Positions 31,698 to 55,350 of a stretch of DNA of 64,000 bases are shown piece by piece; position 1 is the first letter of the stretch; every line of letters starts with the position of its first letter. Source of the stretch: a virus; the IMG/VR virus record IMGVR_UViG_3300016471_000863; one strand, 5' to 3'. The position numbers and the translations under genes were made by a program. The notes below the pieces were generated by a model. That model saw only the letters and a program-made list of their open reading frames with translations. It searched no databases and was not told the DNA's origin.

Positions 31698-32888
31698 TCA
31701 AATAACAGATTCTAATACTTTAGTATATTTTTCATTAATCGAAGCAGGAGAATGAGAAGTTTTTAGTTTTTCCGCCAGTTCGGTAGCCCATTGTTCTGGA
31801 ATCTTTGGGCTTTCATAAAATTTCAAAACTTTTCTCTTGAAATCTTCTTCTGAAGGATTTGCCCATTTAAATCCTGGTAAGTAAATTTGATTATCTACTC
31901 TGGATTCATGGACTGGTGCCAAGTTATAATCTATTTTTATAAATTTACCTTGTGAAAGAAACTCTGTGTGTGCAGACCAATTTGTTGCGATAACTGGTTT
32001 ACCGCAAACAGCAGCCTCTAGTAATGGCAATCCAAATCCTTCACCACGAGTTAGAGATACCAAAGCTTTTATTTTTGGATGCTTGTATAATCCAACAATC
32101 TCTGCGCTCGTCATTTCTCCGTGTAGTAAATAAAATTTTGGACCTACACCCTTACGAGTTTCTGATATTAATTTTGTTAATACTGAAACGCAATTAATTT
32201 CATCTAAAACTGTTTGCCTAGCCATATTTGTTTTTACAATGACTCCAACATTTGGATTATCAGCAAAAGCTTCATTAAACCATTTTATGGTATAAGGAAT
32301 GTTCTTTCTGTCATTCTCTGGATTATTTCCCGTAAATTGAGAAAAAATTAAGAAATTAAAATCTGTTTCTAATTCAAGATCTGAAAGCGGAAGGAGCGTA
32401 TTGTCCAAACATTCGGCAATAAAAGATTCTGGTACTACCTCTACCTTTGTAGTTACCTCTCCTGTGTTGGTTAAAACGCTTTTAACAAATTCAGAAGGCA
32501 CAATAACTAAATCCATTCGATTAACTGCCGAAAGCCAGGCTGGGTTGCATTTATCTGCCTCTACAGCAGCAGTTAATCCAATGTTATATTCTGCTAGGAA
32601 TGGATTCCATTCATTTGGTAACTGAAGCTGTAAACTTACGTCATAATGTGGTAGCTGTTTTGTGCTTTGCACAACTCTGCCAACTAAACCATCCTCTGCT
32701 TCTGGATCTATTAACCATGGGGTTGCGCCCCAAGGTAACGGTTCGCAAACGACTTCTAAATCATTTCTAGAGTCTTGCAATTGAAAAAGCCAACGTGCTA
32801 TTTGTCTAGCATGAACACCATAGCCACTCTGCGATAATAGCGGTGCTCTTAATATTACAACCTTTTTCTTATTCTCACTCATGTTCAC
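31698..32888 (-). CDS. Glycosyltransferase, GT-B/GT4-like
   Basis: SGYGVHAR; RKN; GEGFGLPLLEAAVCGKPVIAT. Confidence 0.9.
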   Translation of the reverse strand: MNMSENKKKVVILRAPLLSQSGYGVHARQIARWLFQLQDSRNDLEVVCEPLPWGATPWLIDPEAEDGLVGRVVQSTKQLPHYDVSLQLQLPNEWNPFLAEYNIGLTAAVEADKCNPAWLSAVNRMDLVIVPSEFVKSVLTNTGEVTTKVEVVPESFIAECLDNTLLPLSDLELETDFNFLIFSQFTGNNPENDRKNIPYTIKWFNEAFADNPNVGVIVKTNMARQTVLDEINCVSVLTKLISETRKGVGPKFYLLHGEMTSAEIVGLYKHPKIKALVSLTRGEGFGLPLLEAAVCGKPVIATNWSAHTEFLSQGKFIKIDYNLAPVHESRVDNQIYLPGFKWANPSEEDFKRKVLKFYESPKIPEQWATELAEKLKTSHSPASINEKYTKVLESVI

Positions 32889-34339
32889 TTGGCTTTCCTT
32901 TCAATTTTTTTTGCCGTAAATCCTGCTCTTATATTTTTATCTAAATCTATTAGATTTTGATCTATCGTTACTGATTTTGATGAATTTTGTACGGGTTTAT
33001 TCTGTGCCGAAGGCAATATTGGAATTAGCTTTTTAAGCTTCCATTTTTTATTTGATTTATTTTTAAATTTTTCTATTGTTTTTTCTAACGTATCATCCCA
33101 CTGTTTTACAATGGTTTCAAAATTAAATTCACTATCAACATAAGCAATATTCTTTTCTGCCAATTGCTTTTTCTCTTCTGGAGAAAGATCATGAATTTTT
33201 CGAAATGCACTAGCTAGTTCTTGAGTTCCGAAATAATCTTCATAGATATATGGAACTAGTTGCGAGCCAACTAAGCTTCTTTTTACTGCTTCTAAACCAA
33301 CGCCATGTTCCGTGCCATCTCTATGGTCTACTACTTGTCTAGTCATGCCACCGGTTTTTAATGCTATGATTGGTTTGCCGCACATCATTGATATCATAGT
33401 CGATAAACCAAATCCTTCATTTTTAGAAACGTTTACACAGCAATCAGTTATATTGTGTAATATATTCATTTCATTAAATTGAAGCCTTTGATTTGAAAAC
33501 CAAACATTGTTTTGTAATCCAAGTTGCTCAGACACCGCCAATAAATTTGGTCCTTCTGGATCGTTTGGATCTGTGTGCATGATTAACACAGCTTTCTTGT
33601 GTCCCTTTTCCTGTTCTAGACGATTTAAGAAAACTTTCCAAGAATCAAGCAAATCAGCAGGCATTTTACGAGTAGCATTACGATTTACCCACAGAACCTT
33701 AAACCAATCTGCCTTGTCTCCAAAATGCTGTTTTGATAGTTGTTGTTTTTGTTCCTCTGGCAAAGGAAAATAAACATTCTTTGGAAATGCATGTGGAATG
33801 TAGTGTGTTTTATCCGGAAAATTTGGCTTTACTAATTCGTATGTTTTATACGATAAACAATTTATAAGATCAGTGCTTTCATACCATGGAAAATTAAATT
33901 TTGGATATGGATCATTATCCCAAACATGCCAGTAAGTAATTGGACAAATTTGTTTTATTTCATCTGCCATTTCCCAAACCCAAATAAATTGTCTTGGATC
34001 TGTGAAAAGTAAAAGCGCATCTGGTTTTTCAGCATATAATATGCTTTTTAACATATCTTTATTGCCAAAACCATCTACAGGTTTAATAACAAAATCTGGG
34101 TTTACGGCAATTGTATCGTAATTGGCGTGCTTAATTGCTCCGCCAAGGCAGCGGAATGAATACTTGCCAGTTTTTATTAAACCCTCTATTAAGAATCTTG
34201 CTTGAACACCTACTCCAGAAGGAGCCAATGGATGATCTGATAGAACTACTATTTTTTTCTTTTTTACCGGTTTTATGAAAAAGTCTTCATCATCCAATAA
34301 TGATGAATCATTCGTAAGCAAACTCTCTTGTTCAGACAT
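32885..34339 (-). CDS. Glycosyltransferase, GT-B/GT4-like
   Basis: SDHP...SGVG; NRNATRK; NEGFGLSTMISMMCGKPIIA (second Glu of EX7E replaced by Ile). Confidence 0.88.
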   Translation of the reverse strand: MSEQESLLTNDSSLLDDEDFFIKPVKKKKIVVLSDHPLAPSGVGVQARFLIEGLIKTGKYSFRCLGGAIKHANYDTIAVNPDFVIKPVDGFGNKDMLKSILYAEKPDALLLFTDPRQFIWVWEMADEIKQICPITYWHVWDNDPYPKFNFPWYESTDLINCLSYKTYELVKPNFPDKTHYIPHAFPKNVYFPLPEEQKQQLSKQHFGDKADWFKVLWVNRNATRKMPADLLDSWKVFLNRLEQEKGHKKAVLIMHTDPNDPEGPNLLAVSEQLGLQNNVWFSNQRLQFNEMNILHNITDCCVNVSKNEGFGLSTMISMMCGKPIIALKTGGMTRQVVDHRDGTEHGVGLEAVKRSLVGSQLVPYIYEDYFGTQELASAFRKIHDLSPEEKKQLAEKNIAYVDSEFNFETIVKQWDDTLEKTIEKFKNKSNKKWKLKKLIPILPSAQNKPVQNSSKSVTIDQNLIDLDKNIRAGFTAKKIERKAK

Positions 34340-34415
34340 TTTTTCTAACTCCTAAGTGTTATTCAAAATATAACTTCTTGGTAGAAAAATGTTCAAAGAA
34401 ACACTAATTAGTTTT

Positions 34416-36623
34416 TTACTTTTTAGAGCCTTGCTGTTTCGCTAGATCGGCTTCATACATTAGAATTGCTAATTCTTTAAATGTAGTCTTTGGCTCCCAT
34501 CCCAAAATTCTTTTTGCTTTTGAAGCATCTCCTAACAATAGAGGAACTTCATGTGGACGAAATAATCTCCGATCAATCTTTACATGCTTCTCAATATCTA
34601 ATCCAGCGTGATTAAAAACTACTTCAAGAAATTCTCGTACTGTATGAGTTTCGCCAGTAGCAATAACATAATCATCGCCCTTTGGCTGTTGAAGCATTAG
34701 CCACATTGCTTCAATAAAATCTTTTCCATATCCCCAGTCACGTTTTGCTTCAAGATTGCCAAGATATAACGATTCCTGTTTTCCTAATTTTATATTAGCA
34801 GCAGCAATAGTAATTTTACGTGTTACAAAAGTTTCACCTCTTACTGGTGAATTGTGAACATGTGACAATCCCACTCCACAATGAAATGTACCAGATTCGG
34901 TTTCCAAATCATAAAACCAACCATCATATTCGTTTAATGAAATTATTTTCTTAACTTCATTTGATTTGATTTTTTTATGATGTATACCTTGTGGTATATA
35001 TCCACGGCTAATTTTCTGAATAAACTTTCTAGAAGCAACTCCATCTCTTGCAATCTTTCTTATGGGATTTCCAGACTCTATTTGTTTCTTAACTTCTAGA
35101 TATTTTGAATATGATCTTGATAAGCTTGACTTGCCATCAGAAAGACAATTTATATGATAATATATTTTGCTTCTCCCGTTCCTTTTTTCCGCTGTTACAT
35201 TAAAATCTTGCCCAGTAACAGATTTTAAAAGATATATCAAGCCAAGACCTAAAGTTGGAGAATTGGTTGTAAAACTCTTATATGAGTAAGTACATGAATT
35301 TTTCTTTAATCCATCTCCTTCGTTATATCCGTCAAGAAATGCCTTCTGCACTTCAGTATTAGAATTCAATATCCATTTAGGTATTTTTTTACTGCCATTT
35401 TCCGTATAAAGATCATGTGCATATGCATTTATCCAAGACCTGGCTCCATTTAAATTTAATTGCCAAATATTTTTAATACCAGTAAATCCAGATTTGGATA
35501 AATACCAAGAAGTTTTAGATTCTGTTGATATAGTCATCCAGATTTGTTCGTATTTTTCTAATATGTCTTTTTCTTTTCCAGTTAATCTAATTGCCGTTGG
35601 TTTACTTATATTACCTTCAGCAACAATAAATCCTAAAAGCTTTGCATTTATAATTTGTATATCGTTGCCTTCAGAAGAAATAGATTTAGGAATCACGTTA
35701 ACAACAGAAACCAAATCACCTTTTTCAATTTTGTCAAAATCTTTCGATTCACCATCCATCATTATATGAGGATGATTTCCGGTTGCAGAAACACAACCAT
35801 GAGCAACGTTTATTAAAGTTGTATTTTTATTTTCAATATCTGGTAAATGAGGATATCCAGATGCCCATGTTACTTTGGTCCAACCTTTTTGGTCCCAAAC
35901 TTGCAGATCAGTGTCAACGTGAGTTTGCTGATAAAATTTTTCACTTTCATTTATAGCTTGTTTTAAATCTTTTCTACTGTGATAACGAACTATTTCTGAT
36001 ATGGGCTTAATATCTATTTCTTCTTTTGAGCCTAATTTAAATATTAAAGGCATATCTCCGGTTATCGTTTCATGGTTGAATAAAATTCCGCAAGATATAT
36101 GAAGCCCGTAACCTTCACGATAATTACGGCAAAGGTTATGAGCATATAACTTGGCACAAGCATATGGAGAAGCTGGTGTCATGCGTGTCTCTTCATTCTG
36201 TGGAACACTAACGTTATCTCCATACATCTCCGAAGATGATGCTTGATAGAAACGTGCCTCCGGACAGATTAGCCTATAAGCTTCCAGAAGCTTCAAGGTG
36301 CCTCCACCTACTACGTCCAGGGTTTCCTCCGGAACTTCAAATGAAACCCTTACATGGCTCTGTGCAGCGAGGTTATATATCTCGTCGGGCTTATACTTGG
36401 TAAGAAGAGAATAGATAGAACTTGAATCGGTCATATTGCCATATTCAAGTTTAAAGTTTGGGTGACTAAATATCTCCATGTCATCAAGACGATCTGTTGT
36501 TATAAGAGAAGTACGTCGCTTCATACCTATAACACGATAACCTTTATCAAGAAGTAGCTTTGCTAAATAAGAACCATCCTGACCTGTTACGCCAGTTATA
36601 AATGCAGTCTTTTGTGTTGACAT
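34416..36623 (-). CDS. gmd: GDP-mannose 4,6-dehydratase, intein-containing
   Basis: ITGVTGQDGSYLA; NLAAQSHVRVSF; FYQASSSEMYG; SPYACAK; ILFNHE|SPVRGETFVTRKI; LGNLEAKRDWG. Exteins total 329 aa. Confidence 0.96.
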   Translation of the reverse strand: MSTQKTAFITGVTGQDGSYLAKLLLDKGYRVIGMKRRTSLITTDRLDDMEIFSHPNFKLEYGNMTDSSSIYSLLTKYKPDEIYNLAAQSHVRVSFEVPEETLDVVGGGTLKLLEAYRLICPEARFYQASSSEMYGDNVSVPQNEETRMTPASPYACAKLYAHNLCRNYREGYGLHISCGILFNHETITGDMPLIFKLGSKEEIDIKPISEIVRYHSRKDLKQAINESEKFYQQTHVDTDLQVWDQKGWTKVTWASGYPHLPDIENKNTTLINVAHGCVSATGNHPHIMMDGESKDFDKIEKGDLVSVVNVIPKSISSEGNDIQIINAKLLGFIVAEGNISKPTAIRLTGKEKDILEKYEQIWMTISTESKTSWYLSKSGFTGIKNIWQLNLNGARSWINAYAHDLYTENGSKKIPKWILNSNTEVQKAFLDGYNEGDGLKKNSCTYSYKSFTTNSPTLGLGLIYLLKSVTGQDFNVTAEKRNGRSKIYYHINCLSDGKSSLSRSYSKYLEVKKQIESGNPIRKIARDGVASRKFIQKISRGYIPQGIHHKKIKSNEVKKIISLNEYDGWFYDLETESGTFHCGVGLSHVHNSPVRGETFVTRKITIAAANIKLGKQESLYLGNLEAKRDWGYGKDFIEAMWLMLQQPKGDDYVIATGETHTVREFLEVVFNHAGLDIEKHVKIDRRLFRPHEVPLLLGDASKAKRILGWEPKTTFKELAILMYEADLAKQQGSKK
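34851..36068 (-). mobile_element. Intein (406 aa) with LAGLIDADG homing endonuclease
   Basis: Interrupts the conserved NHE/SP motif; block A TITGDMPL; block B ATGNH; LLGFIVAEG and FLDGYNEGDG; block F/G FYDLETESGTFHCGVGLSHVHN; Ser+1. Confidence 0.95.
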
Positions 36624-37570
36624 TATATTCCTCTTATATTCGGATATGCTATCTTAAACCAATCACAGGTCTTCTTTAAAGCAATATCAAATGGAGTATA
36701 GTCTTCTACACACCAGCTTGTCTTTTCTAATAATCTTTTATTTGACGAAGGTTTTCTGAATTGTCCTGATGGTTTATCTGTATTAAAAACTAATTTGCCA
36801 TCGTATTCAAGATATTCAACAAGCCGCTTTGCTACAGAAGCTATCGAGTGTTCTTCTGTGTTCCCGATATTGAGCGGGTGTTCTTCATTGTATTCTTCTG
36901 AGACTTTAATGAGTATACGGGCAATATCTCCAGCATAAGTAAACTCTCTTAGGGGGCGACCGTCTCCCCATATTTCTACAGTAGGTTTGTTGTTGAGTTT
37001 GGCTTCCCATATTTTTCTCATAAGAGCTGGGATAACATGACCATCTTCCAAATGGAAATTATCATGCTCGCCAAATAGATTATTTGGAATGACGGTAACA
37101 TAGTTGACTCCATACTGCTTACGATAAGCCCTCGTCTGCACATCTAGCATCCTTTTAGCATAAGCATAGCCAAAGTTGCTATCATGTGGTGGTCCAAGGT
37201 GTAACTGATCTTCTGTGAGCGGATAGGAGACGTATGGAGCATCTGGATAGACACAGGTTGATAATACGGAAACTACTTTTGGCACATTGAAAAACAAACA
37301 TGAACTTAAGACGTTTGTATTGATAGCAATATTTTGATCATAAAAGCTGCCAACAAATTCTGTGTTTGCTTTTACGCCGCCGACACGAGCAGCCAAATGA
37401 TATACGCAATCAATCTTGCTGTTTGCAATGTAGCTATCTACATTTTCTTTATTGGTCAGATTTAATATATCTGAACCAGGGCTTAGTATTAGTTTTGATT
37501 GGTCTGTCAATTCTTTGATTAATGCAAAACCCAACATTCCTCTTCCGCCGCTAATAAATATATTTTTCAT
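36623..37570 (-). CDS. fcl: GDP-L-fucose synthase (GDP-4-keto-6-deoxymannose epimerase/reductase)
   Basis: GGRGMLG; LAARVGGV.AN; STCVYP; YAYAK; PNNLFGEHDNF; HVIPAL; WGDGRPLREF. Confidence 0.93.
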   Translation of the reverse strand: MKNIFISGGRGMLGFALIKELTDQSKLILSPGSDILNLTNKENVDSYIANSKIDCVYHLAARVGGVKANTEFVGSFYDQNIAINTNVLSSCLFFNVPKVVSVLSTCVYPDAPYVSYPLTEDQLHLGPPHDSNFGYAYAKRMLDVQTRAYRKQYGVNYVTVIPNNLFGEHDNFHLEDGHVIPALMRKIWEAKLNNKPTVEIWGDGRPLREFTYAGDIARILIKVSEEYNEEHPLNIGNTEEHSIASVAKRLVEYLEYDGKLVFNTDKPSGQFRKPSSNKRLLEKTSWCVEDYTPFDIALKKTCDWFKIAYPNIRGI

Positions 37571-38559
37571 TGTTTGCTTGAAAGTTGAGCACTAATCCAA
37601 AGATATGTTTTTTCCAATCCATATGCTAACGGTTGAGATACCTTCCAACCAATTTTTTCTTCATATAGTCTATTATCTGAATTTCTTCCTCTAACTCCTA
37701 TTGGTCCTGGAATATGTTTTATTTTTATTTCTTTTTTTGCAATATTAGAAATAATCTCAACAAATTGATTAATGCTTACCATTTCTTCGGAACCAATATT
37801 AACTGGTCCAATAAAATCCGAAGCCATTAAACGCAATACAGCTTCAACACATTCATCAATGTATAAAAAGCTTCTTGTTTGTTCGCCATCGCCCCAAACT
37901 TCTATAGTGCCACCATTTTCAGAGGCAGCAACTTTTCTACAAAGAGCTGCTGGAGCTTTTTCTTTTCCATTATTCCATGAACCATATGGTCCAAAGATAT
38001 TATGGAATCTCGCTATTCTTACATCAAGACCATAATTTCTATTATAAGCAAGATATAGGCGTTCACTAAATAATTTTTCCCAGCCATATTCGCTATCTGG
38101 TGCGGCCGGATATGCACTATCTTCTGAGCATTTAGGATTTTCTGGGTCTTCCTGATTGTAGGCTGGGTACATACAGGCAGACGATGAGTAGAAAATTTTT
38201 GGACGCTTTTTAAATTTTACTGCCGTATCAGCCACATTAAGATTTATTGTAGCAGAATTATGCATTACATCGGCGTCATGTTCGCCGGAAAATATATAAC
38301 CAGCGCCGCCCATATCTGCTGCCAATTGATATACTTCATCAAATCCTTCTGTAAATTTTTCACCAACAGACATTGATCGATAAACTTCTTCAGGATTTCT
38401 TAAATCAGCAATGAAAAATTCATCAGCGATAGAACGAATGTTTGTATATTCATGTTCTTTTATATCAACGCCACGAACCCAATATCCAAGTTCCTTAAGA
38501 CGTTTTACCAAATGACCACCAATAAATCCACCTGCTCCACACACCAATGCTTTTTTCAT
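37567..38559 (-). CDS. GDP-mannose 3,5-epimerase (GME)-like SDR
   Basis: GAGGFIG; LAADMGGAGYI; SSACMYP; YGWEK; RFHNIFGP.G.W..GKEKAPAALCRK; WGDGEQTRSF. Confidence 0.88.
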   Translation of the reverse strand: MKKALVCGAGGFIGGHLVKRLKELGYWVRGVDIKEHEYTNIRSIADEFFIADLRNPEEVYRSMSVGEKFTEGFDEVYQLAADMGGAGYIFSGEHDADVMHNSATINLNVADTAVKFKKRPKIFYSSSACMYPAYNQEDPENPKCSEDSAYPAAPDSEYGWEKLFSERLYLAYNRNYGLDVRIARFHNIFGPYGSWNNGKEKAPAALCRKVAASENGGTIEVWGDGEQTRSFLYIDECVEAVLRLMASDFIGPVNIGSEEMVSINQFVEIISNIAKKEIKIKHIPGPIGVRGRNSDNRLYEEKIGWKVSQPLAYGLEKTYLWISAQLSSKQ

Positions 38560-39389: not shown

Positions 39390-39412
39390 TTTTTCCTCTT
39401 GATTATTTAATT

Positions 39413-40573: not shown

Positions 40574-40576
40574 TAT

Positions 40577-42131: not shown

Positions 42132-42137
42132 ATTTCC

Positions 42138-42761: not shown

Positions 42762-42777
42762 TTCGATATCCTTTGCT

Positions 42778-45460: not shown

Positions 45461-45466
45461 TATATG

Positions 45467-46983: not shown

Positions 46984-46992
46984 TTATATTTC

Positions 46993-47844: not shown

Positions 47845-47845
47845 T

Positions 47846-48490: not shown

Positions 48491-48499
48491 GATACTTAA

Positions 48500-49045
48500 T
48501 CAAAGCTTTATATAAAAAGCTTCTCCCCAGGTTTCATGACTTGCTCTTGTTAACGATCTTACAAAGCCATAACTTGATAAAAAATCGTCCATTTCTTTTG
48601 TACCACGAATCTTAGTATAAATTGCTTTAAAAGCCGAATGTCTTGGATCAGATAGATATTGTCCAAAACCTTCTAAAACATTTAATTCATTACCAAATTC
48701 AACTTCATTGATTATTAAATCGTAATTTTCTAATTCTACTAATGCAAGATTCTTCTTGTAGAAAGAATCAAATCTCATGCTTGTACCACTTCTGTCAATA
48801 TTCGAAAATATATCACAAACATAATGTTGCTTTGCCGGTAAAAATTTTGTCGAATTATATAAATCTGCCATCCTCATCTTTTCAGATTCCATCCAAAGGA
48901 TATTGGAAATACCAGATTCAACTAATAACGTACCATTAGTTCCTAAATTTTTGCCAAAATAAATGGCACCTTTTAATTTATCATTTCTTTTTTCTTGATA
49001 CGTTTTTATACATTCTTTTATTGGAATTAACATTTCATTCTCCAA
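48500..49045 (-). CDS. Divergent FkbM-like paralogue, possibly inactive
   Basis: Colinear with 47846..48490 (MLIPIKEC, ELNVLEGF, WGEAFY), but the SAM-binding and DxxG motifs are altered. Confidence 0.65.
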   Translation of the reverse strand: MENEMLIPIKECIKTYQEKRNDKLKGAIYFGKNLGTNGTLLVESGISNILWMESEKMRMADLYNSTKFLPAKQHYVCDIFSNIDRSGTSMRFDSFYKKNLALVELENYDLIINEVEFGNELNVLEGFGQYLSDPRHSAFKAIYTKIRGTKEMDDFLSSYGFVRSLTRASHETWGEAFYIKL

Positions 49046-49853
49046 TCCACTTTAAGGGAAGCTCAACATGAACAGTATTATTAGAATAATTGATTATGTG
49101 TTCATAAGATAATCTTTTACCAGAAAGAAAATTGTTATTTAATTCTTCTGCGCTTAATATGTTGCCATGTCGATTGGCATATACATCCTGTACTATATTT
49201 GCAGGTATATTTAACAATTTACTCCCTTTTGCATAGCATGACATATATTGTTTCGTGCGATCTGCCGTTGCCGCAAGACCAGCTTCTAATTGATTTGGAT
49301 TTTTAAAATTAATTTGATTTATTTTTTCAAATATAAAATCTGTTCTATAAATGTTTCCATCAACAGACATTGGATAATTCCAATCACCAGCAGCCGCCGT
49401 CCAATTCCAAATGCATCCCTTTACAAATTTTGGTATTGAATTTGGATTATTTGTAGCATAGCAGTGATCAATGCCATTCCAAAGTCTCAAGGAATGCGCT
49501 ATAATCTCATTGTTGTTCTTAACAAACTGTATTTCATTGTCATTTAATGACCATTCCGATTTAAAAACAATATCATCAACCAAAAACATGGTCAACTTGT
49601 TATTAATATTTAAACTCTTAATTAAAGACTGTTTAAATGAACCATATAAATTATCTGAAATAAATTCTACAGAATTCATATTCTCTTGCTGGCTAGACAA
49701 TTGAAGATAACTTTTTTGAAATAATTCATTGCTAAAATTATAGCATACATTAATTTTTAACGAATCTGATTCTCTGAGAGAAGATTTAAAACTTCTTAAA
49801 AGTAAATCTAATTGAGCAGCTCTATCTTTTGAAAATATAATAATATTAAGCAT
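49035..49853 (-). CDS. GT-A-fold glycosyltransferase-like protein
   Basis: IIIFSKDRAAQL; MFLVDD; SLRL; YPMSVDG; NPNQLE. Confidence 0.7.
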   Translation of the reverse strand: MLNIIIFSKDRAAQLDLLLRSFKSSLRESDSLKINVCYNFSNELFQKSYLQLSSQQENMNSVEFISDNLYGSFKQSLIKSLNINNKLTMFLVDDIVFKSEWSLNDNEIQFVKNNNEIIAHSLRLWNGIDHCYATNNPNSIPKFVKGCIWNWTAAAGDWNYPMSVDGNIYRTDFIFEKINQINFKNPNQLEAGLAATADRTKQYMSCYAKGSKLLNIPANIVQDVYANRHGNILSAEELNNNFLSGKRLSYEHIINYSNNTVHVELPLKWIGE

Positions 49854-49868
49854 TTGTCAAATTCCGTT

Positions 49869-50603
49869 TCATAAATTTTCTAGCCATGCTGGATTTGTAG
49901 AGGTATTTCTCCTATAGAAATATAAGGATTCCATTACTATGGAAGTTTTTTGCAGCAATAAAGTCATTTTGGTGTTGAAGTCACTGTCTTCTGCACGCTG
50001 ACATCTTAATCCCATGTTGCCTGGTAAAAATTTCATACCATTTTCCCAAAGTTGTTTATAAAACAAACATGATGCACCATGAGCTTCAAAATTTGGTCCA
50101 ACATAATAATGATTAATCCCCGATGTTTTAAACCCAAGATGTACAAATTTTGTAACAGTTGAATGATCCATCACTTTTGGATTTAAATTTTTATTTACAC
50201 TTTTATATTTTTGAATATCATCTTCTGAGTAACAATGAAAAAAGCCACACAAATTATGATAGCTTTTCATTCCTTGCATAACTTCATATTGAAGTTCTAA
50301 TCTGTATTGGCTGCAAGCGTCATCTGCGTCCTGGAGGGTAATAAGCTCTCCAGTTGCTTTTTCAATCGCCGTATTTAAAGCAAACCACTTTCCTCTATTC
50401 TTTTCTAAAAAGATAGTTTTTAATGGAAATCTTAAGTTTTCTTTTTGCAAAGATAAAATCTTTTCTTTACTGTCATCCGTAGAACAATCATCTATAACAA
50501 TCAATTCTATATTTTCATATGATTGTTTTTGAATTGAATCAATTGCAGTTTCAATATATTGAGAATGATTATAATTTGTTACAATAACAGATATTTTCTT
50601 CAT
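49869..50603 (-). CDS. Glycosyltransferase, GT2
   Basis: ISVIVTNYN; IDDCSTD; QDADD; AEDSDF. Start reassigned to ATG 50603 (ATGA overlap with the upstream stop). Confidence 0.9.
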   Translation of the reverse strand: MKKISVIVTNYNHSQYIETAIDSIQKQSYENIELIVIDDCSTDDSKEKILSLQKENLRFPLKTIFLEKNRGKWFALNTAIEKATGELITLQDADDACSQYRLELQYEVMQGMKSYHNLCGFFHCYSEDDIQKYKSVNKNLNPKVMDHSTVTKFVHLGFKTSGINHYYVGPNFEAHGASCLFYKQLWENGMKFLPGNMGLRCQRAEDSDFNTKMTLLLQKTSIVMESLYFYRRNTSTNPAWLENL

Positions 50604-51274
50604 TTGGGTTTGCTCACAACAGCCGCATAATATCCATTCCACCAGCCCGCAATATCGTGATCTGTATTGTTTGGTGTTTTCATTACCCATTCTTTATGAA
50701 TGGATAAATTCAAGTCTCGGAAAGCTTCTCTGGTTCCAACTTCAACATCATCTGTCCAATTCCAGTCATCGCATAAATAAACAAAATCATCTTCTACAAA
50801 ATCTATAAATTTTGTCAAAGCCTCATAGTGATGTTGTTTTTTGTGAGGACCATCATACAAACATATTGGAAACCGTCCATATTCCTCAATGTGTAAGTCT
50901 TCAGAAGTAATTTCAAAACAATTTTTTTCTAAAAACTTTATTGGAAGATTGTCTATATCAATGTATTTTTGAACATTTGATAAGAATTCATATTTAGGTC
51001 CAGTAAATTCAGACCAATTATCGCAAGCAACAGAATATTCGTTTACTTTACTGCCATTTAATGCAGAGCAAAATGTAGATCCTGCCCAAACTCCAATTTC
51101 TAAATATCTACCACCTATTCCTTGAACAAGATTGTTTAAAAAATGCCTAGTTTTTGTACCAGAAAATCCCTTTATTCTTGTAAGTTCTGGGTTTAATAAC
51201 GACTTATATTGTTCGGCATTTTCTAAAGATTTATCAATTATATTTAACCAATTATTAATTTTATCAGATCTCAT
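50600..51274 (-). CDS. SAM-dependent methyltransferase (Methyltransf_24-like)
   Basis: YLEIGVWAGST; YDGPH; DDWNW. Confidence 0.85.
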   Translation of the reverse strand: MRSDKINNWLNIIDKSLENAEQYKSLLNPELTRIKGFSGTKTRHFLNNLVQGIGGRYLEIGVWAGSTFCSALNGSKVNEYSVACDNWSEFTGPKYEFLSNVQKYIDIDNLPIKFLEKNCFEITSEDLHIEEYGRFPICLYDGPHKKQHHYEALTKFIDFVEDDFVYLCDDWNWTDDVEVGTREAFRDLNLSIHKEWVMKTPNNTDHDIAGWWNGYYAAVVSKPK

Positions 51275-52271
51275 GTTTTTTAACCCAATCGTTTATAAAA
51301 AATGGCAACGGTTTATCAATTCGTACACTATTTGTTTTTTGTCCAGTCCAAGCAGTATGAAATATATGACCACCCGTTTCACTTGCTAGTTGTTTGGCTT
51401 TCATTTTAATTTCTTCACCAGAAACATCATTCAATGATTTTTGAAAAAATGGATTCCAACCTTCAGGCTTAGAAGCCTTCTCTCCATATAATGAAAGCCA
51501 AGAATCATTCCAAAAATATTTGTATTTATGTATTTTTGAAGCAATACTCCACCAAGAAAAATGGTAAACTGTTGGTAAGTTTTCTACACTAGCATTGAAC
51601 CATTTTTCATATTCTTTTGCAGCATTCGTATCTGAAACTGCCTTTACTCTTATGTCGTCTACTTCTTTTGTTATAAAGTTTAAACACGGCACAATAAGCC
51701 CATTTTTTTTATTTATATAATCACAACCATCGCTTCCAGGTTTTGAATAGAGTAATCCATCCTTCTCCCATCTCAAAGGAGATGGAATACCATGAGTAAT
51801 ATTTGGATCATTTCTAGAAATTCTCCACTTCCACGGATTAACATCAACCCTTACCTTTTCTATTCCACCCCAATATTCAACAACAGGTAAAGCTAATAAC
51901 GGCACATCTTTCAAATAATTTGTTTTTTGCAATACAGATTCTATTTTCTTTCTCGAATTGGGCTCTACAACTTCATCTGCATCAATTTGCCATAAAAAAT
52001 CACCAGTACATTGCTCACGAGCAAATGCTTTGGTCATACCATCATATATTCCATGATTAGGAGCATTCCAGGGAATTTGGATTTGATAAACATTGAGTGA
52101 TGGAATTTCATCCATTAAAGCCTCTAAACGAGCCGAGGTGCCATCTTCTTTATCTGATGAGTCTACCACTACAATCTCATCACAAAAATCCGCTAATGAC
52201 CTTATGGTGGCTTCAAATGGATAGTCCATCTCTACAGCATTTCTTATTGTTGTATATCCACTTATTTTCAT
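51264..52271 (-). CDS. Glycosyltransferase, GT2/GT-A
   Basis: ISGYTTIRN; DEIVVVD...DGT; QIDADE. Confidence 0.85.
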   Translation of the reverse strand: MKISGYTTIRNAVEMDYPFEATIRSLADFCDEIVVVDSSDKEDGTSARLEALMDEIPSLNVYQIQIPWNAPNHGIYDGMTKAFAREQCTGDFLWQIDADEVVEPNSRKKIESVLQKTNYLKDVPLLALPVVEYWGGIEKVRVDVNPWKWRISRNDPNITHGIPSPLRWEKDGLLYSKPGSDGCDYINKKNGLIVPCLNFITKEVDDIRVKAVSDTNAAKEYEKWFNASVENLPTVYHFSWWSIASKIHKYKYFWNDSWLSLYGEKASKPEGWNPFFQKSLNDVSGEEIKMKAKQLASETGGHIFHTAWTGQKTNSVRIDKPLPFFINDWVKKHEI

Positions 52272-52352: not shown

Positions 52353-53270
52353 TCATATACAATATTTGGTGCCGCTATAAACGCAATACATGCAACTATT
52401 CCTGTTTTTAACAAATCTTCGCTGTTGCAATTGATTTATCATGTTTTGAACTATATCAAGAGCTTTTTCCTCAGTTTTAGGTCCAACTGAAACAGGAACG
52501 AATTCACATCTAGAACCATCTTTTTTGGGAGTCCTTTTCAGGAGAACAAATCCTGTCTTTACCTGCGTTAAATCTAAGTTATTTAACTTACACCAAAAAT
52601 GTTTGTATAGTACAAGTTGCAATTGTTTTTGAAAATCTCGTTTTTTATCTGGAGTCCATCCAAAAGACGTAGTTTTCCAATCTAGAATTATTGTCTGATA
52701 CTCATCATTTGAGTGATCTTCGCCAGTTAACTCTGACAATCTCATTGGAGAATTTTTATTTATAGCTTTTCTTTGCTTTACAGGAACTTTGATTATGCAA
52801 TCAATGAATCCTTTGAAATATTTTTCTTTTTGATTTTGAACTTCTTCAAATAAATTCCATTCAGTAGCTACGGGTAGCCAACCTGGAAAAGTTTCATCTA
52901 ACCATCCTGGTACTTGTTTTAGGATTGGTCCAATTGCTTCAGAAAATTCTTCTATTTCTTTTTCTGAATACAGCGAAGGATCAATCTCTTTGAGTTTCAA
53001 CATTCTTTCGGAAAAATCTTTTATAGTCTTCTCTACTACTTCTTCCGTCATAGAATGACGGGTCATAATAAATTCTTCTAAAGTATCGTGTATCGAACTT
53101 CCGAATTCCGTATGAATACTCGGCTTATCTAACGATATTTTATCTATATGCTTTAACTTGTGGCGAAAGCTACATTGTAACCAATCGTAAGCTTCTGAAT
53201 ACGAAATTGAATGTTTACCGGTTGGCAACATATATTTTTCATTTAATACTGGAAGTTCTTTTTTTTGCAT
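52353..53270 (-). CDS. PD-(D/E)XK Cas4/RecB-like exonuclease with probable Fe-S cysteines
   Basis: ISYS...C; FGSSIH; GFID; ILDWKT; QLVLY; C-terminal CMYC......C. Confidence 0.85.
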   Translation of the reverse strand: MQKKELPVLNEKYMLPTGKHSISYSEAYDWLQCSFRHKLKHIDKISLDKPSIHTEFGSSIHDTLEEFIMTRHSMTEEVVEKTIKDFSERMLKLKEIDPSLYSEKEIEEFSEAIGPILKQVPGWLDETFPGWLPVATEWNLFEEVQNQKEKYFKGFIDCIIKVPVKQRKAINKNSPMRLSELTGEDHSNDEYQTIILDWKTTSFGWTPDKKRDFQKQLQLVLYKHFWCKLNNLDLTQVKTGFVLLKRTPKKDGSRCEFVPVSVGPKTEEKALDIVQNMINQLQQRRFVKNRNSCMYCVYSGTKYCI

Positions 53271-53411
53271 AAAATCTACAATAACATGTTAAAATTTCAT
53301 TTTTAAACATAAACTCGCTCTTAAAGAGCATTGGAATAAAATTTTTTAGAGAGGACTAAAAATAATGATTTGCAATTATCGTTTTAGATAACTGTTGATA
53401 TCTGTAAATAG

Positions 53412-53435
53412 AAATACCCCGCTATCGGGGTATTT
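53412..53435 (-). terminator. Intrinsic terminator downstream of the IMPDH/GMPR gene
   Basis: Perfect stem AAATACCCCG-ctat-CGGGGTATTT a few nt past the stop codon. Confidence 0.75.
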
Positions 53436-53439
53436 TCGT

Positions 53440-54459
53440 TCACTTCATTGCTGTATGTCTTATGCCAAACTTTGCATTCATTTGGAATTCGCAGAGATTA
53501 CAAGAATTAGAATAAGAGAAGGAACTCTGCAACCCACCCTTAATCTGATTTACAATATCAACTGCGCTATGCTCACTTGCGTCAATCAATGTTGAAACTC
53601 CTTCTGCCGTTGGCAATGAAGAAGAATTACGAATGGTTAGCATTGCATCCTTGCTTGCCATGCCACGATAAACCTTCTTACCGCCTACACGTTCACCAGG
53701 AGCTTCACGGGCACCAGCAAACAAACGTCCACACATGACAAGATTAGCACCAGCGGCAAGAGCCTTGGCAATATCACCAATCTCAGTAATACCACCATCA
53801 GCTACAATAAGAGGCTTATTGCCATATATATCATGCAGAGCACTTGCACATTCCATTACAGCACTAAACTGAGGAACGGTAACGCCAGTAACATTCTTTG
53901 TGATGCAAACATTTCCGGGACCAATACCAGTCTTAATAGCATGAGCACCCCAGGAAGCAAGATCCTTAACAGCTTGTGCAGTAGCTACATTTCCTGCCAT
54001 AACATACACATCTGAATATGTTTCACGGAGCCATGTAATCATATCACGCATCATTCGTGAGTGACCATGTGCGATATCAATAACAAAGTTACGGGCACCG
54101 GCAGCATGAAGAAACCGAGCACGATCTTTACTTTCTTCATTTACCCCGATGGATACGAAACAAGGATGGGATTTATTACCGGATGCGGTTTGAAACTCAT
54201 GGATATTCTGTTCAACCGTCATAAAACGGTGAATGGCTCCAATAGCACCACCTTCTGCCATAGCATGAGCCATTTCACCAGCAGTAACGGTATCCATATT
54301 AGCGGAAATGACGGGAACATCAATCTTAAAGTCGCCAATATGAACACTTGTATCTACTTGAGAACGAGAAGTAACTTCGCTGTATTGAGGTACTATATAC
54401 ACATCCTTATAGTCCAAATCTCCAGAATTATTAAATTCTTTTAAAAACTTATCAGCCAT
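53440..54459 (-). CDS. IMP dehydrogenase / GMP reductase family protein (no CBS domains)
   Basis: ANMDTVT; IDIAHGHS; AGNVAT; GIGPGNVCITK; ADGGI...GDIAKAL; YRGMAS; AEG. Confidence 0.92.
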   Translation of the reverse strand: MADKFLKEFNNSGDLDYKDVYIVPQYSEVTSRSQVDTSVHIGDFKIDVPVISANMDTVTAGEMAHAMAEGGAIGAIHRFMTVEQNIHEFQTASGNKSHPCFVSIGVNEESKDRARFLHAAGARNFVIDIAHGHSRMMRDMITWLRETYSDVYVMAGNVATAQAVKDLASWGAHAIKTGIGPGNVCITKNVTGVTVPQFSAVMECASALHDIYGNKPLIVADGGITEIGDIAKALAAGANLVMCGRLFAGAREAPGERVGGKKVYRGMASKDAMLTIRNSSSLPTAEGVSTLIDASEHSAVDIVNQIKGGLQSSFSYSNSCNLCEFQMNAKFGIRHTAMK

Positions 54460-54462
54460 AAA

Positions 54463-55350
54463 TTATTCCTTGTTTATAATTTTCCAAAATCTGTTGTATG
54501 AATTTTTTAGATAGTTTATGGTATCATCTATATTTTCTGTTCTAAACCATTCTTCATCTTTATGTTGAACATTTTCATTTAGATCTAATTGTAGCCCCAT
54601 GAGTTTTGCTTCAATTACAAGTCGTGGGCAGGTATCGAATCCGGCAGGATGAAATATTAAACCTTTGTATTCTCCAAGTTTTTGAATAAACTGTTCATAT
54701 GGCAAACCGCCAATTAAATCATAATCTAATCCTTTAGATTTGGCATATGCTTCTGTAGCTTCTTGAGCTTTAATCCATGATCCGCCTTTGAGTATTGCCC
54801 ATTTATCATTGGATGCTCTATTATTTCTTATTTCAAGTAGGACTTTATAATCTTTTTCTTCCCAAGCAGAAGACAATACTTTTGCATTACTTTTCAGTGC
54901 GGGAAACCATTTGCAATATTCATTCATTTGTCCTGTTGACATGAAAAATAAATGCTCTGCCCTCCTGTAGAATGATGCTACCCATTTTCCGTAGGAGTCT
55001 GTGTGACAATCACAATCAACTTGCGTTTTTAACTTATGTAAATGGCTTGATCTATATTTGCAATATTTGTAATCATATTCGATAATTGAATATTTGCAAC
55101 CAGATTGTACTAACTGAATTCTACCTTCAATTGGAGATTGATTCCAATTACATAAAACCCAATATTTATCTGTATTTTTTTGAACTAATTCAGGAGTTAG
55201 TGATTCGCTGTGCAGTTTAAATACGTTTTTTTTGCTACAATTAATAATTGCATCGGTTGTTAATTCAGCACCGCCAATATATTCATTAGAATATAAATCG
55301 GCTACAAATATTACTTCTGTAGTTGGTGGAATGAAATATTCTTTAGGCAT
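54463..55350 (-). CDS. GT-B-like glycosyltransferase
   Basis: GGAELT; DTCPRLVIEAKLMG; likely start ATG 55350 overlapping the upstream stop. Confidence 0.7.
   Translation of the reverse strand: MPKEYFIPPTTEVIFVADLYSNEYIGGAELTTDAIINCSKKNVFKLHSESLTPELVQKNTDKYWVLCNWNQSPIEGRIQLVQSGCKYSIIEYDYKYCKYRSSHLHKLKTQVDCDCHTDSYGKWVASFYRRAEHLFFMSTGQMNEYCKWFPALKSNAKVLSSAWEEKDYKVLLEIRNNRASNDKWAILKGGSWIKAQEATEAYAKSKGLDYDLIGGLPYEQFIQKLGEYKGLIFHPAGFDTCPRLVIEAKLMGLQLDLNENVQHKDEEWFRTENIDDTINYLKNSYNRFWKIINKE

Follow-up and report, generated by a model that had tools for sequence, protein, structure and literature searches.

The glycosylation pathway of the chlorovirus major capsid protein is autonomous and has Vp54 as its acceptor. 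GtfA and GtfB, of which GtfB is non-catalytic, form the O-GlcNAc transferase complex of serine-rich-repeat adhesins. The methylmannose polysaccharide of mycobacteria provides the comparison for a free, methylated polysaccharide made in the cytoplasm. Among bacteriophages, the jumbo phage XacN1 has virion glycoproteins (PMC5852040, which also cites chlorovirus glycosylation), and mycobacteriophages bear capsid and tail glycans, as cited in PMC12619734.

The locus considered here lies in a window of 64,000 nucleotides from IMG/VR virus record IMGVR_UViG_3300016471_000863, a record of 128.9 kb from a very large, uncultured phage that covers only about 28% of the genome. A co-directional, minus-strand block of about 24 genes (31698-52271, ~20 kb) is devoted to sugar synthesis and sugar joining. 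As originally predicted, many start and stop codons overlap (10 of 23 junctions), and all but two of the gaps are 20 nt or shorter. The block and its immediate neighbours are as follows.

30562-31308, minus: sigma-factor-like protein (fold matches only)
31298-31696, minus: 132-aa protein with a single membrane helix at its N-terminus (Kyte-Doolittle 2.68, residues 1-27) and an acidic coiled-coil tail
31698-32888, minus: core glycosyltransferase GT396, GT4-like (Pfam Glycos_transf_1, C-terminal half)
32885-34339, minus: core glycosyltransferase GT484, retaining GT4 fold (Pfam Glycos_transf_1)
34416-36623, minus: GDP-mannose 4,6-dehydratase (GMD) with an intein (NCBIfam equivalog TIGR01472, 432.5 against a cut-off of 415)
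36623-37570, minus: Fcl/GMER-like SDR, GDP-L-fucose synthase-like (best match NF047922, 244.7 bits, below the cut-off of 500)
37567-38559 and 38556-39389, minus: two SDR epimerase/reductase genes (Pfam Epimerase; NCBIfam weak Fcl-type matches only)
39413-40573, minus: third GT4, variable-island member (Pfam Glycos_transf_1, 3.2e-11)
40577-41221, minus: SAM methyltransferase (Pfam Methyltransf_23/25)
41208-42131, minus: GalE/TviC-like SDR (Pfam Epimerase; best NCBIfam match GalE, 149 bits, below cut-off)
42138-42761, minus: SAM methyltransferase (Pfam Methyltransf_23/25)
42778-43089, minus: small HAD phosphatase (best Pfam/NCBIfam match well below the equivalog cut-off)
43093-43590, minus: GmhA-like SIS isomerase (NCBIfam 56.8 against a cut-off of 265)
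43587-44570, minus: HddA-like GHMP kinase (NCBIfam 96 against a cut-off of 600)
44567-45460 and 45467-46303, minus: two GT2 (GT-A) glycosyltransferases (Pfam Glycos_transf_2)
46300-46983, minus: FkbM methyltransferase (Pfam Methyltransf_21)
46993-47844, minus: short GT4-like protein (family membership)
47846-48490, minus: FkbM methyltransferase (Pfam Methyltransf_21)
48500-49045, minus: probable methyltransferase, FkbM paralogue with no Pfam match (phmmer 2e-20 against 47846-48490)
49035-49853, minus: candidate glycosyltransferase, GT-A-like by motif only
49869-50690, minus: GT2 (Pfam)
50600-51274, minus: probable methyltransferase, Methyltransf_24-like (sub-threshold Pfam match; PHROG 1458)
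51264-52271, minus: GT2 at the upstream end of the island (Pfam)
52353-53270, minus: PD-(D/E)XK nuclease, conserved left-hand neighbour of the GT pair (Pfam PDDEXK_1)

The original prediction had extended the glycan genes over 31698-55350, of which 31698-52271 stands; the remainder (52353-55350, its genes running to 55395) encodes the nuclease, an IMPDH/GMP-reductase-like protein and one unknown gene, none of them glycan-related by Pfam. Rather than about ten glycosyltransferases, eight are supported, namely seven by Pfam (three GT4/GT-B, four GT2) and the short GT4-like protein, some homologues of which carry PF13439 or PF00534 and some of which are fused to methyltransferases. A ninth is a candidate, and none of its 320 homologues has a Pfam domain. 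The six methyltransferases divide into four firm ones (two SAM, two FkbM) and two probable ones. The GMD call is upheld, the gene being interrupted by a 406-aa LAGLIDADG intein (34851-36068; LAGLIDADG and intein matches); the L010 homologue is intein-free and reads straight through the junction. The supposed Fcl is better termed Fcl-like (83% identity to the L010 gene), and no GME is identifiable; the block has three SDRs besides GMD and the Fcl-like gene, two of which (37567-38559 and 38556-39389) are paralogues of the latter (phmmer). By sequence similarity at scores far below the cut-offs, the phosphatase, isomerase and kinase (42778-44570) resemble the first steps of GDP-D-glycero-D-manno-heptose synthesis, a tentative heptose assignment that retains part of the proposed heptose module; the trio lacks the nucleotidyltransferase step. 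Because no sugar nucleotidyltransferase is encoded (no NTP_transferase in the 128.9-kb record), 'self-contained' was an overstatement. A Kyte-Doolittle scan found no membrane segment in any glycosyltransferase of the block, as had been claimed.

Comparison with 82 related IMG/VR loci divides the block in two. GT484 is kept in all 82 (median identity 64%) and GT396 in 81 (55%), whereas each island gene, generic SDR matches aside, occurs in one to eight loci, the third GT4 in only six; nothing else within the block is conserved. In about 24 of the 82, a GMD gene is the immediate neighbour of GT484. Upstream ORFs of the related loci are mostly SDR sugar enzymes, DegT aminotransferases, CapD-type enzymes, methyltransferases and GT2, and 512 of them form 322 clusters at 60% identity. 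The island sits inserted between the nuclease gene and GT484; among the 29 loci showing both, the two are directly abutting in 12, and the gap ranges from 5 bp to >9.6 kb. GT484 has >2678 homologues, the best 120 at 58-86% identity (59-86% by BLASTP, 58-86% in alignment A1) on contigs of up to 364 kb, and homology searches indicate that the pair is common to hundreds of related phages.

The GT396 and GT484 genes overlap by 4 nt. Both proteins retain GT4 catalytic-type motifs, the GEGFGLP...E motif of GT396 being invariant. Their modelled complex reaches an ipSAE of 0.88 in all three runs, against 0.00 for the best of three controls; among solved complexes 58 of 80 attain that mark, among mismatched pairs 2 of 110. 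At least 58% of contacts are shared between the runs, with a partner pLDDT of at least 91. In the predicted interface, a C-terminal W-x-L-x-x-(I/L) strand of GT484 (residues 431-442) docks on GT396, and this W-x-L tail is conserved across homologues (alignment A1). On this modelling, the two probably work as a heterodimer. The AF2 model of GT484 (pLDDT 79.5) has MshA, chlorovirus NY-2A B736L and BshA as its best Foldseek neighbours; such fold matches point to generic GT4 enzymes that act on small molecules or polysaccharides, not to known protein glycosyltransferases.

Between GT396 and the sigma-like gene lies the translationally coupled gene for the 132-aa protein, with a homologue in 64 of the 82 loci. 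The sigma-like gene itself (79 of 82 loci) had been called a late sigma factor; it has no Pfam or PHROG match, and the assignment is carried by an AF2 model (pLDDT 67) for which nearly all of the best 40 or so Foldseek matches are sigma factors, the best with an E-value of 0.04. In immuto and LR756508.1 this gene is upstream of baseplate genes. Since the GT pair is translationally coupled to it, the pair is probably expressed before the late structural genes, not alongside them.

In Flavobacterium phage immuto, Microcystis phage Mel-JY01, Rhodothermus phage RM378 and LR756508.1, the pair occurs among replication and nucleotide genes, in the company of the nuclease and IMPDH-like genes and not beside the baseplate. 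Adjacency to the nuclease recurs in immuto, Mel-JY01 and LR756508.1. The two GTs remain mutually adjacent in the Flavobacterium, Microcystis and Rhodothermus phages (in RM378 the neighbour, p014, is a remote GT396 homologue; hhalign 90.8%), and different sugar genes directly flank them in two of these three. Mel-JY01 has a C5-methyltransferase adjoining the nuclease, and in LR756508.1 a ThyA homologue, somewhat atypical, lies 2 kb upstream of the pair. Baseplate adjacency is specific to the present lineage, and the earlier argument from that position is weak because distant relatives place the pair on the replication side.

The negative premises of the original prediction fare better. The 128.9-kb record contains no phosphoglycosyl transferase, Wzx, multi-pass polymerase-type protein, ABC ATPase, base hydroxymethylase, ThyA-family gene or C5-methyltransferase, although such absences are weak evidence alone because so little of the genome is covered. 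They extend, however, to a complete 305-kb relative with terminal repeats and six partial relatives, all carrying the same GT pair, in which no Bac_transf/WecA-type priming enzyme, Wzx, ABC ATPase, C5-methyltransferase or DpdA/TGT was found; the complete relative also lacks a polymerase-type protein. TET/JBP was found neither in the record nor in four cultured or uncultured distant relatives, in a search whose control likewise matched nowhere. Thymidylate synthases of the relatives are of the canonical type only, that of the complete relative scoring 345.9 bits and having the Asn of PFNIAS.

These features are best read, tentatively and at a little under an even chance, as a two-part cytoplasmic system, encoded by large aquatic phages of a widespread lineage, that glycosylates the virion or another phage protein. 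The soluble, retaining GT4 pair, probably as a heterodimer, would initiate the glycan on an acceptor that is conserved and encoded by the phage, presumably using a common host nucleotide sugar. The 18-kb strain-specific island (34416-52271) between the pair and the conserved nuclease gene would then supply tailored donors, a GDP-6-deoxyhexose via GMD and the Fcl-like enzyme as well as other SDR products and, perhaps, a sugar of the heptose type. About six further GTs may lengthen the glycan, in an order we can only infer, and four to six methyltransferases may O-methylate it. The most likely acceptor would be one or more virion proteins, in which case the particle would wear a variable, serotype-like glycan coat. 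If the acceptor is conserved across hosts of different phyla, a phage product accounts for this more readily than does an intermediate of the host envelope. Against the virion stand the probable early expression of the pair and its replication-side position in distant relatives, which is more typical of DNA-directed or early functions.

A less likely alternative is remodelling of the host surface, in which soluble phage enzymes at the inner membrane face would modify undecaprenyl-linked host intermediates, relying on the host for a priming enzyme and a ligase and for a flippase or ABC exporter. The outcome would be an altered O-antigen or capsule during a long infection, for example to block superinfection or keep progeny from re-adsorbing to debris. 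The lack of membrane segments does not count against this, since O-antigen and capsule GTs are normally peripheral and without helices; soluble GTs being normal in lipid-linked pathways too, use of a host carrier and exporter is possible. The island content (GMD/Fcl, DegT, CapD-type, WbqC, UDP-glucose dehydrogenase and FkbM) is typical of O-antigen loci, a small membrane-anchored protein is conserved immediately after the pair, the known hosts of relatives are all Gram-negative, and similar hypervariable islands of pelagimyophages and cyanomyophages have been read in this way (PMC7029224). The missing priming and export genes weigh on the other side, as does a highly identical core pair spanning host phyla with differing envelope glycans, which is hard to fit to a host-specific lipid-linked acceptor. 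A nine-enzyme glycan would, moreover, have to suit a foreign flippase or ligase, a demanding condition, and no experimental case is known for a strictly lytic large phage.

It is improbable that the product is instead kept off the virion to reprogram the infected cell, whether free, as a polymethylated cytoplasmic oligo- or polysaccharide, or attached to a non-structural phage protein or a cytoplasmic host protein. The gene set would fit, since methylated polysaccharides of the cytoplasm can be made by soluble GT4 enzymes and methyltransferases with neither carrier nor exporter, and the pair shares a transcript with a regulatory gene, not with structural genes. Among the fold neighbours, MshA, BshA, sucrose-phosphate synthase and glycogen synthase use small-molecule or glycan acceptors and a methylmannose-polysaccharide mannosyltransferase (7qsg) ranks 30th, but these neighbours are generic for GT4. 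No phage precedent is known, and the strong strain-to-strain diversity of the island suggests an exposed product under diversifying selection, not an internal metabolite.

DNA is an unlikely acceptor. A hypermodification in which the pair glycosylates a modified base and the island varies the glycan against restriction and modification-dependent nucleases could draw on the nuclease-GT-GT order kept in immuto, Mel-JY01, LR756508.1 and the present lineage, on the Mel-JY01 C5-methyltransferase and LR756508.1 ThyA homologue, and on published cases: phage GTs attach glycans of one to three sugars, heptose among them, to 5hmC, and those of the GT-B type accompany ThyA homologues (bioRxiv 10.1101/2023.12.21.572611), and arabinosyl-5-hydroxycytosine is made via a ThyA homologue (PMC13326640). 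It is very improbable given the base-modification genes missing above, a gene set (about nine GTs, with as many as six methyltransferases) well beyond any known DNA glycan, and immuto_2-6A, a relative only about 31% identical that carries a homologous GT pair along with sugar genes of its own, whose DNA yielded dA, dC, dT and fdPreQ1 and no glycosylated nucleoside by LC-UV-MS (PMC10516641).

New here are the division between a conserved GT4 pair and a locus-specific island (82 loci), the predicted heterodimer, the position of the pair beside a PD-(D/E)XK nuclease in the replication module of cultured distant relatives, and a complete 305-kb relative in which no priming transferase, Wzx flippase or ABC ATPase was found. 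Phage DNA sugar hypermodification (T4 alpha/beta-glucosyltransferases; MT+5mYOX+GT; ThyA homologue+GT) shares GT-A/GT-B enzymes beside replication genes and nucleases, and its glycans may hold heptose and several residues with sugar-tailoring genes nearby; it differs in its defining base-hydroxylating enzyme, absent here and in the complete relative, and immuto DNA is not glycosylated. The host recognition cluster of pelagimyophages and cyanomyophages (PMC7029224) likewise belongs to large, T4-type aquatic phages and is a non-syntenic, LPS-like island by tail genes, rich in GTs and deoxy-sugar enzymes and with no export genes described. It differs in phage lineage, GT families (GT8 dominant there) and genome position, no anchoring conserved GT pair is described, and its authors favour host O-chain modification.

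As described in PMC12619734, moraphages are jumbo aquatic Bacteroidota phages of up to 307 kb; marker trees relate them to the Rhodothermus phage, and their core genes include a sigma factor and four GT orthogroups. On that description they are probably the same or a sister lineage, and the complete 305-kb relative also carries the present pair. The passages on the moraphage GTs list them and describe no island architecture, association with a nuclease or complex between GTs. The O-glycosylation of mycobacteriophage virions (Freeman et al. 2023, as cited in PMC12619734) shares phage GTs, sometimes an O-methyltransferase, and cytoplasmic capsid and tail decoration, and XacN1 (PMC5852040) demonstrates that jumbo myoviruses of Gram-negative hosts can bear glycoproteins. 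Those systems comprise 2-4 genes within a structural operon, whereas the present one, hypervariable and with about 24 genes, supplies donors of its own; unlike them, its core pair is tied to a nuclease/replication module in distant relatives.

Capsid glycosylation in chloroviruses PBCV-1 and NY-2A shares virus-encoded GMD and GMER/Fcl-type enzymes, several soluble cytoplasmic GTs, sugar O-methyltransferases and independence from ER/Golgi or lipid-carrier machinery, and the NY-2A GT B736L (3oy2) ranks third among the fold neighbours of GT484. Chloroviruses have a eukaryotic host and an established acceptor, Vp54, and have neither a conserved heterodimeric GT4 pair nor a hypervariable island at a fixed position; the homology of their multi-domain GTs to the present ones does not go beyond fold. 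GtfA-GtfB offers the parallel of two adjacent GT-B-fold proteins that, as a complex, prime cytoplasmic protein O-glycosylation for extension by soluble GTs. No sequence relationship to the phage pair is detectable, and GtfA falls outside the best 50 fold neighbours of GT484. Whereas GtfB is non-catalytic, both phage GTs have catalytic-type motifs, and, unlike GtfA-GtfB, their predicted interface is formed by C-terminal strand addition.

The locus is a conserved glycosyltransferase pair joined to a swappable island of donor-tailoring and extension genes at a fixed genomic position, as established by synteny counts across related loci. We refer to the two members of the pair as GT484, a 484-aa GT4 enzyme, and GT396, its GT4-like partner, and to the variable sugar genes between GT484 and a PD-(D/E)XK nuclease gene as the island (34416-52271). 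The window corresponds to bases 31073-95072, reverse strand, of an IMG/VR virus record 128,872 bp long with a G+C content of 0.33, which CheckV rates as 28% complete, so that the whole genome should measure some 460 kb. Between 52271 and 31298 all genes lie on the minus strand in tight packing, with overlaps at 10 of 23 junctions and only two gaps exceeding 20 nt, one of 76 nt ahead of 32885-34339 and one of 23 nt ahead of 38556-39389. The sugar genes are as follows.

31698-32888, 32885-34339 and 39413-40573, minus strand: three GT4 genes (Pfam/NCBIfam), the first two being GT396 and GT484
34416-36623, minus strand: GDP-mannose 4,6-dehydratase, GMD (TIGR01472, 432.5 against a cut-off of 415, intein allowed for)
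36623-37570, minus strand: Fcl-like SDR (244.7 against a cut-off of 500)
44567-45460, 45467-46303, 49869-50690 and 51264-52271, minus strand: four GT2 genes (Pfam/NCBIfam)
46993-47844, minus strand: member of a 538-protein family, without a family match itself; some members carry GT4 Pfam domains or methyltransferase fusions
48500-49045, minus strand: paralogue of its FkbM neighbour (phmmer 2e-20), without a family match
49035-49853, minus strand: member of a 320-protein family without a Pfam domain, with GT-A-like motifs only
Within the island, minus strand: three SDRs besides the Fcl-like gene (Pfam/NCBIfam)
Within the island, minus strand: two class-I SAM and two FkbM methyltransferases (Pfam/NCBIfam)
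Within the island, minus strand: a trio of HAD phosphatase, SIS isomerase and GHMP kinase, with best matches of GmhB, GmhA and HddA type

The original prediction, a self-contained phage glycan factory running to 55350 with some ten glycosyltransferases and six methyltransferases, was about right in its gene counts, with eight supported glycosyltransferases plus one candidate, and four firm plus two probable methyltransferases; a hydropathy scan likewise found no membrane segment in any of these enzymes. Its extent was too generous, as 52353-55395 holds the PD-(D/E)XK nuclease, an IMPDH/GMP-reductase-like gene and an unassigned gene, all outside the system, and no gene in the locus can be given the name GME. 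Nor is the system self-contained: with no sugar nucleotidyltransferase in the record, either the host or the unseen remainder of the genome has to supply GDP-mannose and whatever activated heptose is used. A Megablast comparison of the island with 50,697 phage records gave no matches, PHROG scans of the flanking and family-less genes gave nearly none, and phmmer of the three family-less proteins (46993-47844, 48500-49045 and 49035-49853) against PDB sequences returned none. Scans for sigma-70 promoters and terminators gave counts equal to those of shuffled controls, and comparison of intergenic regions by eye revealed no common motif. Proteins 100% identical to those of 46993-47844 and 49035-49853 occur in other assemblies, on contigs as long as 212,047 bp, so that a longer assembly of the same phage probably exists. 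Elsewhere in the window are a peptide deformylase (58747-59391, plus strand), also found downstream of the glycosyltransferase cluster in Microcystis phage Mel-JY01, and an Hsp20-type small heat-shock protein (59454-59804), adjoined by two neighbouring proteins of about 230 aa, each with a central hydrophobic segment (57255-58660).

IMG/VR holds 236 related loci, 82 of which were examined. The order GT484, GT396, 132-aa membrane-anchored protein, sigma-like gene and baseplate genes is near-invariant among them, with GT484 present in 82, GT396 in 81, the sigma-like gene in 79 and the membrane protein in 64. The protein collection contains over 2678 homologues of GT484, of which the best 120 are at least 58% identical (59-86% by BLASTP, 58-86% by alignment) and lie on contigs of up to 364 kb. 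Upstream of GT484 there is no such conservation: generic SDR similarity aside, each island gene recurs in just 1-8 of the 82 loci, with best matches spread over different relatives. Where both genes are visible, in 29 loci, nuclease and GT484 are separated by anything between 5 bp and over 9.6 kb, the two abutting in 12; in the window the distance is 18 kb. Clustering at 60% identity sorts the 512 upstream ORFs into 322 groups, and among 148 group representatives counted by Pfam family the most frequent are SDR dehydratases/epimerases (22), DegT aminotransferases (8), CapD-type proteins (8), methyltransferases (about 8) and GT2 enzymes (7), with fewer UDP-glucose dehydrogenases, FkbM and WbqC proteins. 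In about 24 of the 82 loci the gene immediately adjoining GT484 is a GMD gene. A second small variable slot lies between the sigma-like gene and the baseplate block, where 29936-30505 encodes a 189-aa protein with a match to the legume-lectin beta-sandwich (PF00139, 28.1 bits against a cut-off of 26.3); no homologue of it was found in the 82 related loci.

Both members of the core pair have GT4 catalytic-type glutamate motifs as invariant alignment columns; a role for GT396 as an inactive chaperone of the GtfB kind was set aside on this ground. The AF2 model of GT484 (mean pLDDT 79.5) has a standard retaining GT4 fold, whose nearest solved structures by Foldseek are MshA, the chlorovirus NY-2A glycosyltransferase B736L, BshA, glycogen synthase and sucrose-phosphate synthase. 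These are generic retaining GT4 neighbours, so they do not tell acceptor types apart, and phmmer of both proteins against PDB sequences gave generic GT4 matches and nothing more. Complex prediction supports the binding of GT484 to GT396 as a heterodimer via a conserved C-terminal strand, with an ipSAE of 0.88 in three of three runs, against 0.00 for the best of three controls, contact agreement of at least 58% and partner pLDDT of at least 91. Among solved complexes 58 of 80 attain this mark, as do 2 of 110 mismatched pairs, a calibration that is approximate here, custom alignments having been used; the score itself is a model confidence. The predicted interface centres on GT484 residues 431-442, disordered in the monomer model, where a W-x-L-x-x-(I/L) strand would extend the GT396 sheet at residues 251-259. 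This motif is kept in nearly all GT484 homologues, and the flanking tail is variable. After the strand, residues 443-484 or thereabouts form a Pro/Gln/Ser-rich linker that varies among homologues, many of which terminate in a conserved basic peptide, (A/T)KK(I/L)ERK(A/P)K, which could be a targeting or tethering signal.

The pair also occurs in distant phages. By tblastn, GT484 homologues of 24-31% identity were found in five places, spread over the Flavobacterium phage vB_FspM_immuto, the Microcystis phage Mel-JY01, the Rhodothermus phage RM378 and LR756508.1, a 484-kb uncultured phage that is the nearest by baseplate protein. A GT396-like gene follows GT484 in immuto, Mel-JY01 and RM378 (hhalign 90.8% in RM378), the immuto pair being just about 31% identical to that of the window. 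In immuto, Mel-JY01 and LR756508.1 the PD-(D/E)XK nuclease again stands ahead of the pair, and in immuto and Mel-JY01 differing sugar genes (GT2, WecE-type aminotransferases, methyltransferases, epimerase) directly follow the pair. Since variable sugar genes have thus been joined to the pair on either side in separate lineages, a functional connection between them is supported. An island common to LR756508.1 was ruled out, as that phage lacks any GT2 gene. The IMPDH/GMP-reductase-like gene (53440-54459, 339 aa, no CBS insert) is conserved beside the nuclease (52353-53270) in the window lineage and also in Mel-JY01 (39% identity), and has a homologue in LR756508.1; it lies between nuclease and pair in Mel-JY01 and upstream of the nuclease in the window.

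These relatives bear on an argument that the original prediction had drawn from the neighbouring baseplate genes. The pair adjoins the sigma-like and baseplate genes in 79-82 of the 82 loci of the window lineage, but in immuto they lie about 30 kb apart, and in immuto, Mel-JY01 and RM378 the pair is located among replication and nucleotide genes; its neighbours in distant relatives include ribonucleotide reductase, helicase, Erf, clamp loader and SAM synthetase. The adjacency is therefore a junction of two modules particular to the window lineage, and the nuclease-GT-GT order in cultured distant relatives weakens the argument built on it.

The gene called a late sigma factor (30562-31308) earned that name in part: its Foldseek ranking consists mostly of sigma factors, which is suggestive, but no match reached E ≤ 0.001. 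GT396 is followed after 1 nt by the gene for the 132-aa protein, which in turn overlaps the sigma-like gene by 11 nt. If the latter is a late sigma factor, this translational coupling would probably place synthesis of the pair ahead of that of the late proteins, a timing that would probably count against a virion acceptor. The conserved 132-aa protein itself (31298-31696) has a single N-terminal membrane helix and an acidic coiled-coil tail, which should be cytoplasmic given the positive residues after the helix; it could anchor the glycosyltransferase pair at the membrane or have the sigma-like protein as its target.

As to the sugars supplied, Gmd is confirmed by its score, whereas the Fcl-like gene falls short as an equivalog, so that the pathway could end in fucose or in a different GDP-6-deoxyhexose. 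The proposed heptose module keeps its best matches to GmhA-, HddA- and GmhB-type enzymes, but the scores are far below the curated NCBIfam cut-offs (GmhA 56.8 against 265, HddA 96 against 600, HAD-IIIA 29.3 against 44.6) and HddC is missing; no NTP_transferase was found in the record or in those of seven relatives. One related locus (L010) encodes a HAD-nucleotidyltransferase fusion. The GMD gene is interrupted by a 406-aa LAGLIDADG intein (34851-36068, between ...ILFNHE and SPVRGETF...), whose first residue is an unusual Thr in place of Cys, Ser or Ala. The intein-free GMD homologue of L010 is continuous across this junction, and that of locus L009 (738 aa) also carries an insert. The record is intein-rich in general (L005:333-2507, L004:14686-18663, L004:11110-13581, L003:2385-5888 and L002:318-3515), with Hint/LAGLIDADG insertions in its volactin (actin-like), DnaB-type helicase and DNA polymerase III alpha genes, two Intein_splicing stretches in ribonucleotide reductase, and Intein_splicing and LAGLIDADG domains of two different families in a PIN-PhoH protein. 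It also encodes a free-standing GIY-YIG/NUMOD3 endonuclease.

What, then, receives the glycan? The phage enzymes may work through the lipid-carrier and export machinery of the host and so remodel its surface. O-antigen glycosyltransferases are normally soluble or peripheral, which makes the missing export genes compatible with such borrowing, and the clustering of nucleotide-sugar synthesis genes (GMD, Fcl-like, SDRs) with GT2 and GT4 enzymes is a trait of O-antigen and capsule loci. In pelagimyophages and cyanomyophages, LPS-like sugar islands adjoin tail genes and are read as modifying the host O-chain (PMC7029224). The absence of an initiating enzyme or exporter was upheld in the 128.9-kb record, which contains no Bac_transf (PF02397) match and, by hydropathy scan, no protein of 10-12 TM segments, its sole multi-pass membrane protein having 170 aa and three TM segments. 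The search was extended to six partial relatives (44-70%) and a complete one of 305,036 bp that has direct terminal repeats (CheckV 100%). PF02397 and the WecA/MraY-type PF00953 were absent from all seven, Wzx (PF01943) gave no match and no ABC_tran match rose above cut-off, within the limits of family searches, which overlook very divergent enzymes. Export or priming genes elsewhere in the genome had been named as signs of host-surface conversion; none occurs in the complete relative, a result that describes the relative's genome, the record itself being 28% complete. If the glycan is on the host surface instead, the locus would be an unusually large case of the LPS-like auxiliary gene sets of marine myoviruses. 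Another possible product, which fits the gene set, is a free cytoplasmic methylated glycan or a glycosylated non-structural protein.

A DNA base is an unlikely acceptor. Evidence from a relative comes from immuto_2-6A, which carries the homologous pair with adjacent sugar genes and whose DNA, by LC-UV-MS, contains dA, dC, dT and fdPreQ1 in place of dG, with no glycosylated nucleoside (PMC10516641). The record, 28% complete, lacks a ThyA-family gene, a C5-methyltransferase and TET/JBP, the last absence being weak evidence, as the control search matched that family nowhere. The seven relatives are devoid of C5-methyltransferase and TGT/DpdA matches; four have ThyA homologues (346-408 bits), and the translated ThyA of the complete relative bears the canonical uracil-specifying Asn. 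In favour of DNA are the nuclease as conserved neighbour of the pair, a C5-methyltransferase adjoining that nuclease in Mel-JY01, in LR756508.1 a slightly unusual ThyA homologue at 2 kb from the pair, and phage glycosyltransferases that assemble mono- to trisaccharides, heptose included, on 5hmC (bioRxiv 10.1101/2023.12.21.572611). The LR756508.1 homologue (302656-303450; L018:1501-2295), upstream of the pair, retains both the catalytic Cys and the uracil-specifying Asn; the sequence about this Asn is ...GAVWNWTSY... where the canonical one is ...GVPFNIASY....

Our preferred but tentative reading, on indirect evidence, is that the glycan is placed on the virion or on another phage protein. Across phages of Bacteroidota, Rhodothermus and Cyanobacteria the core pair shows a capsid-like degree of conservation, which favours a phage-encoded acceptor over a host-specific one, and the hypervariability of the island is as expected of an exposed product under diversifying selection. 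In its soluble glycosyltransferases, methyltransferases and donor-synthesis genes, the gene set matches that expected of virion-glycosylation systems of the mycobacteriophage or chlorovirus type. Chlorovirus capsids are one precedent for virus-encoded glycosylation. Others are the glycoproteins of jumbo phage XacN1 (PMC5852040) and the capsid and tail glycans of mycobacteriophages cited in PMC12619734. As a candidate glycosylation sequon we considered [ST]G[ST], which is otherwise rare (2.8 per 1000 residues overall) and is enriched over own composition in fibre-like proteins (z 2.6-7.1). These are three paralogues of about 410 aa, a 1034-aa YadA-repeat fibre protein and four large, probably structural, proteins (60330-64037 and 19401-24416 in the window; w64049-67153, w-2298..38 and w-29128..-27446 beyond it). 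The enrichment is confined to such proteins, and the candidate was rejected; such turns are common in fibres, so it carries no weight.

The architecture is striking and very widespread. A glycan on the virion would mean globally abundant large aquatic phages with strain-specific sugar coats, with a bearing on adsorption, on how virions withstand proteases and grazers, on whether host defences recognise them and on the evolution of phage 'serotypes', and would offer a carrier-free route to complex methylated glycans, usable in glyco-engineering. Three cultured carriers of the core pair, immuto, Mel-JY01 and RM378, make the acceptor question testable.

The source phage probably belongs to the lineage of the 'moraphages', or to a sister lineage. 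These aquatic jumbo phages of Bacteroidota have four core glycosyltransferase orthogroups and a core sigma factor, to which PMC12619734 assigns no role. Phage glycan gene islands and virus-encoded glycosylation are of kinds already known. New here are the predicted GT484-GT396 heterodimer formed via a conserved C-terminal strand, the nuclease-GT-GT order conserved in cultured distant relatives, the whole-genome negative searches in a complete relative, and the use of the immuto LC-MS result (PMC10516641) as experimental evidence against a DNA acceptor. A bolder proposal, which we advance tentatively and would not expect to hold in full, is that the GT4 heterodimer is a lineage-wide primer of cytoplasmic virion-protein glycosylation, carried by Rhodothermus, Flavobacterium and Microcystis phages and hundreds of uncultured jumbo phages, onto which the island would build a strain-specific, O-methylated deoxy-sugar 'serotype'. 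If true, phages would here have an equivalent of the O-antigen diversity of bacteria, achieved without a lipid carrier or export.
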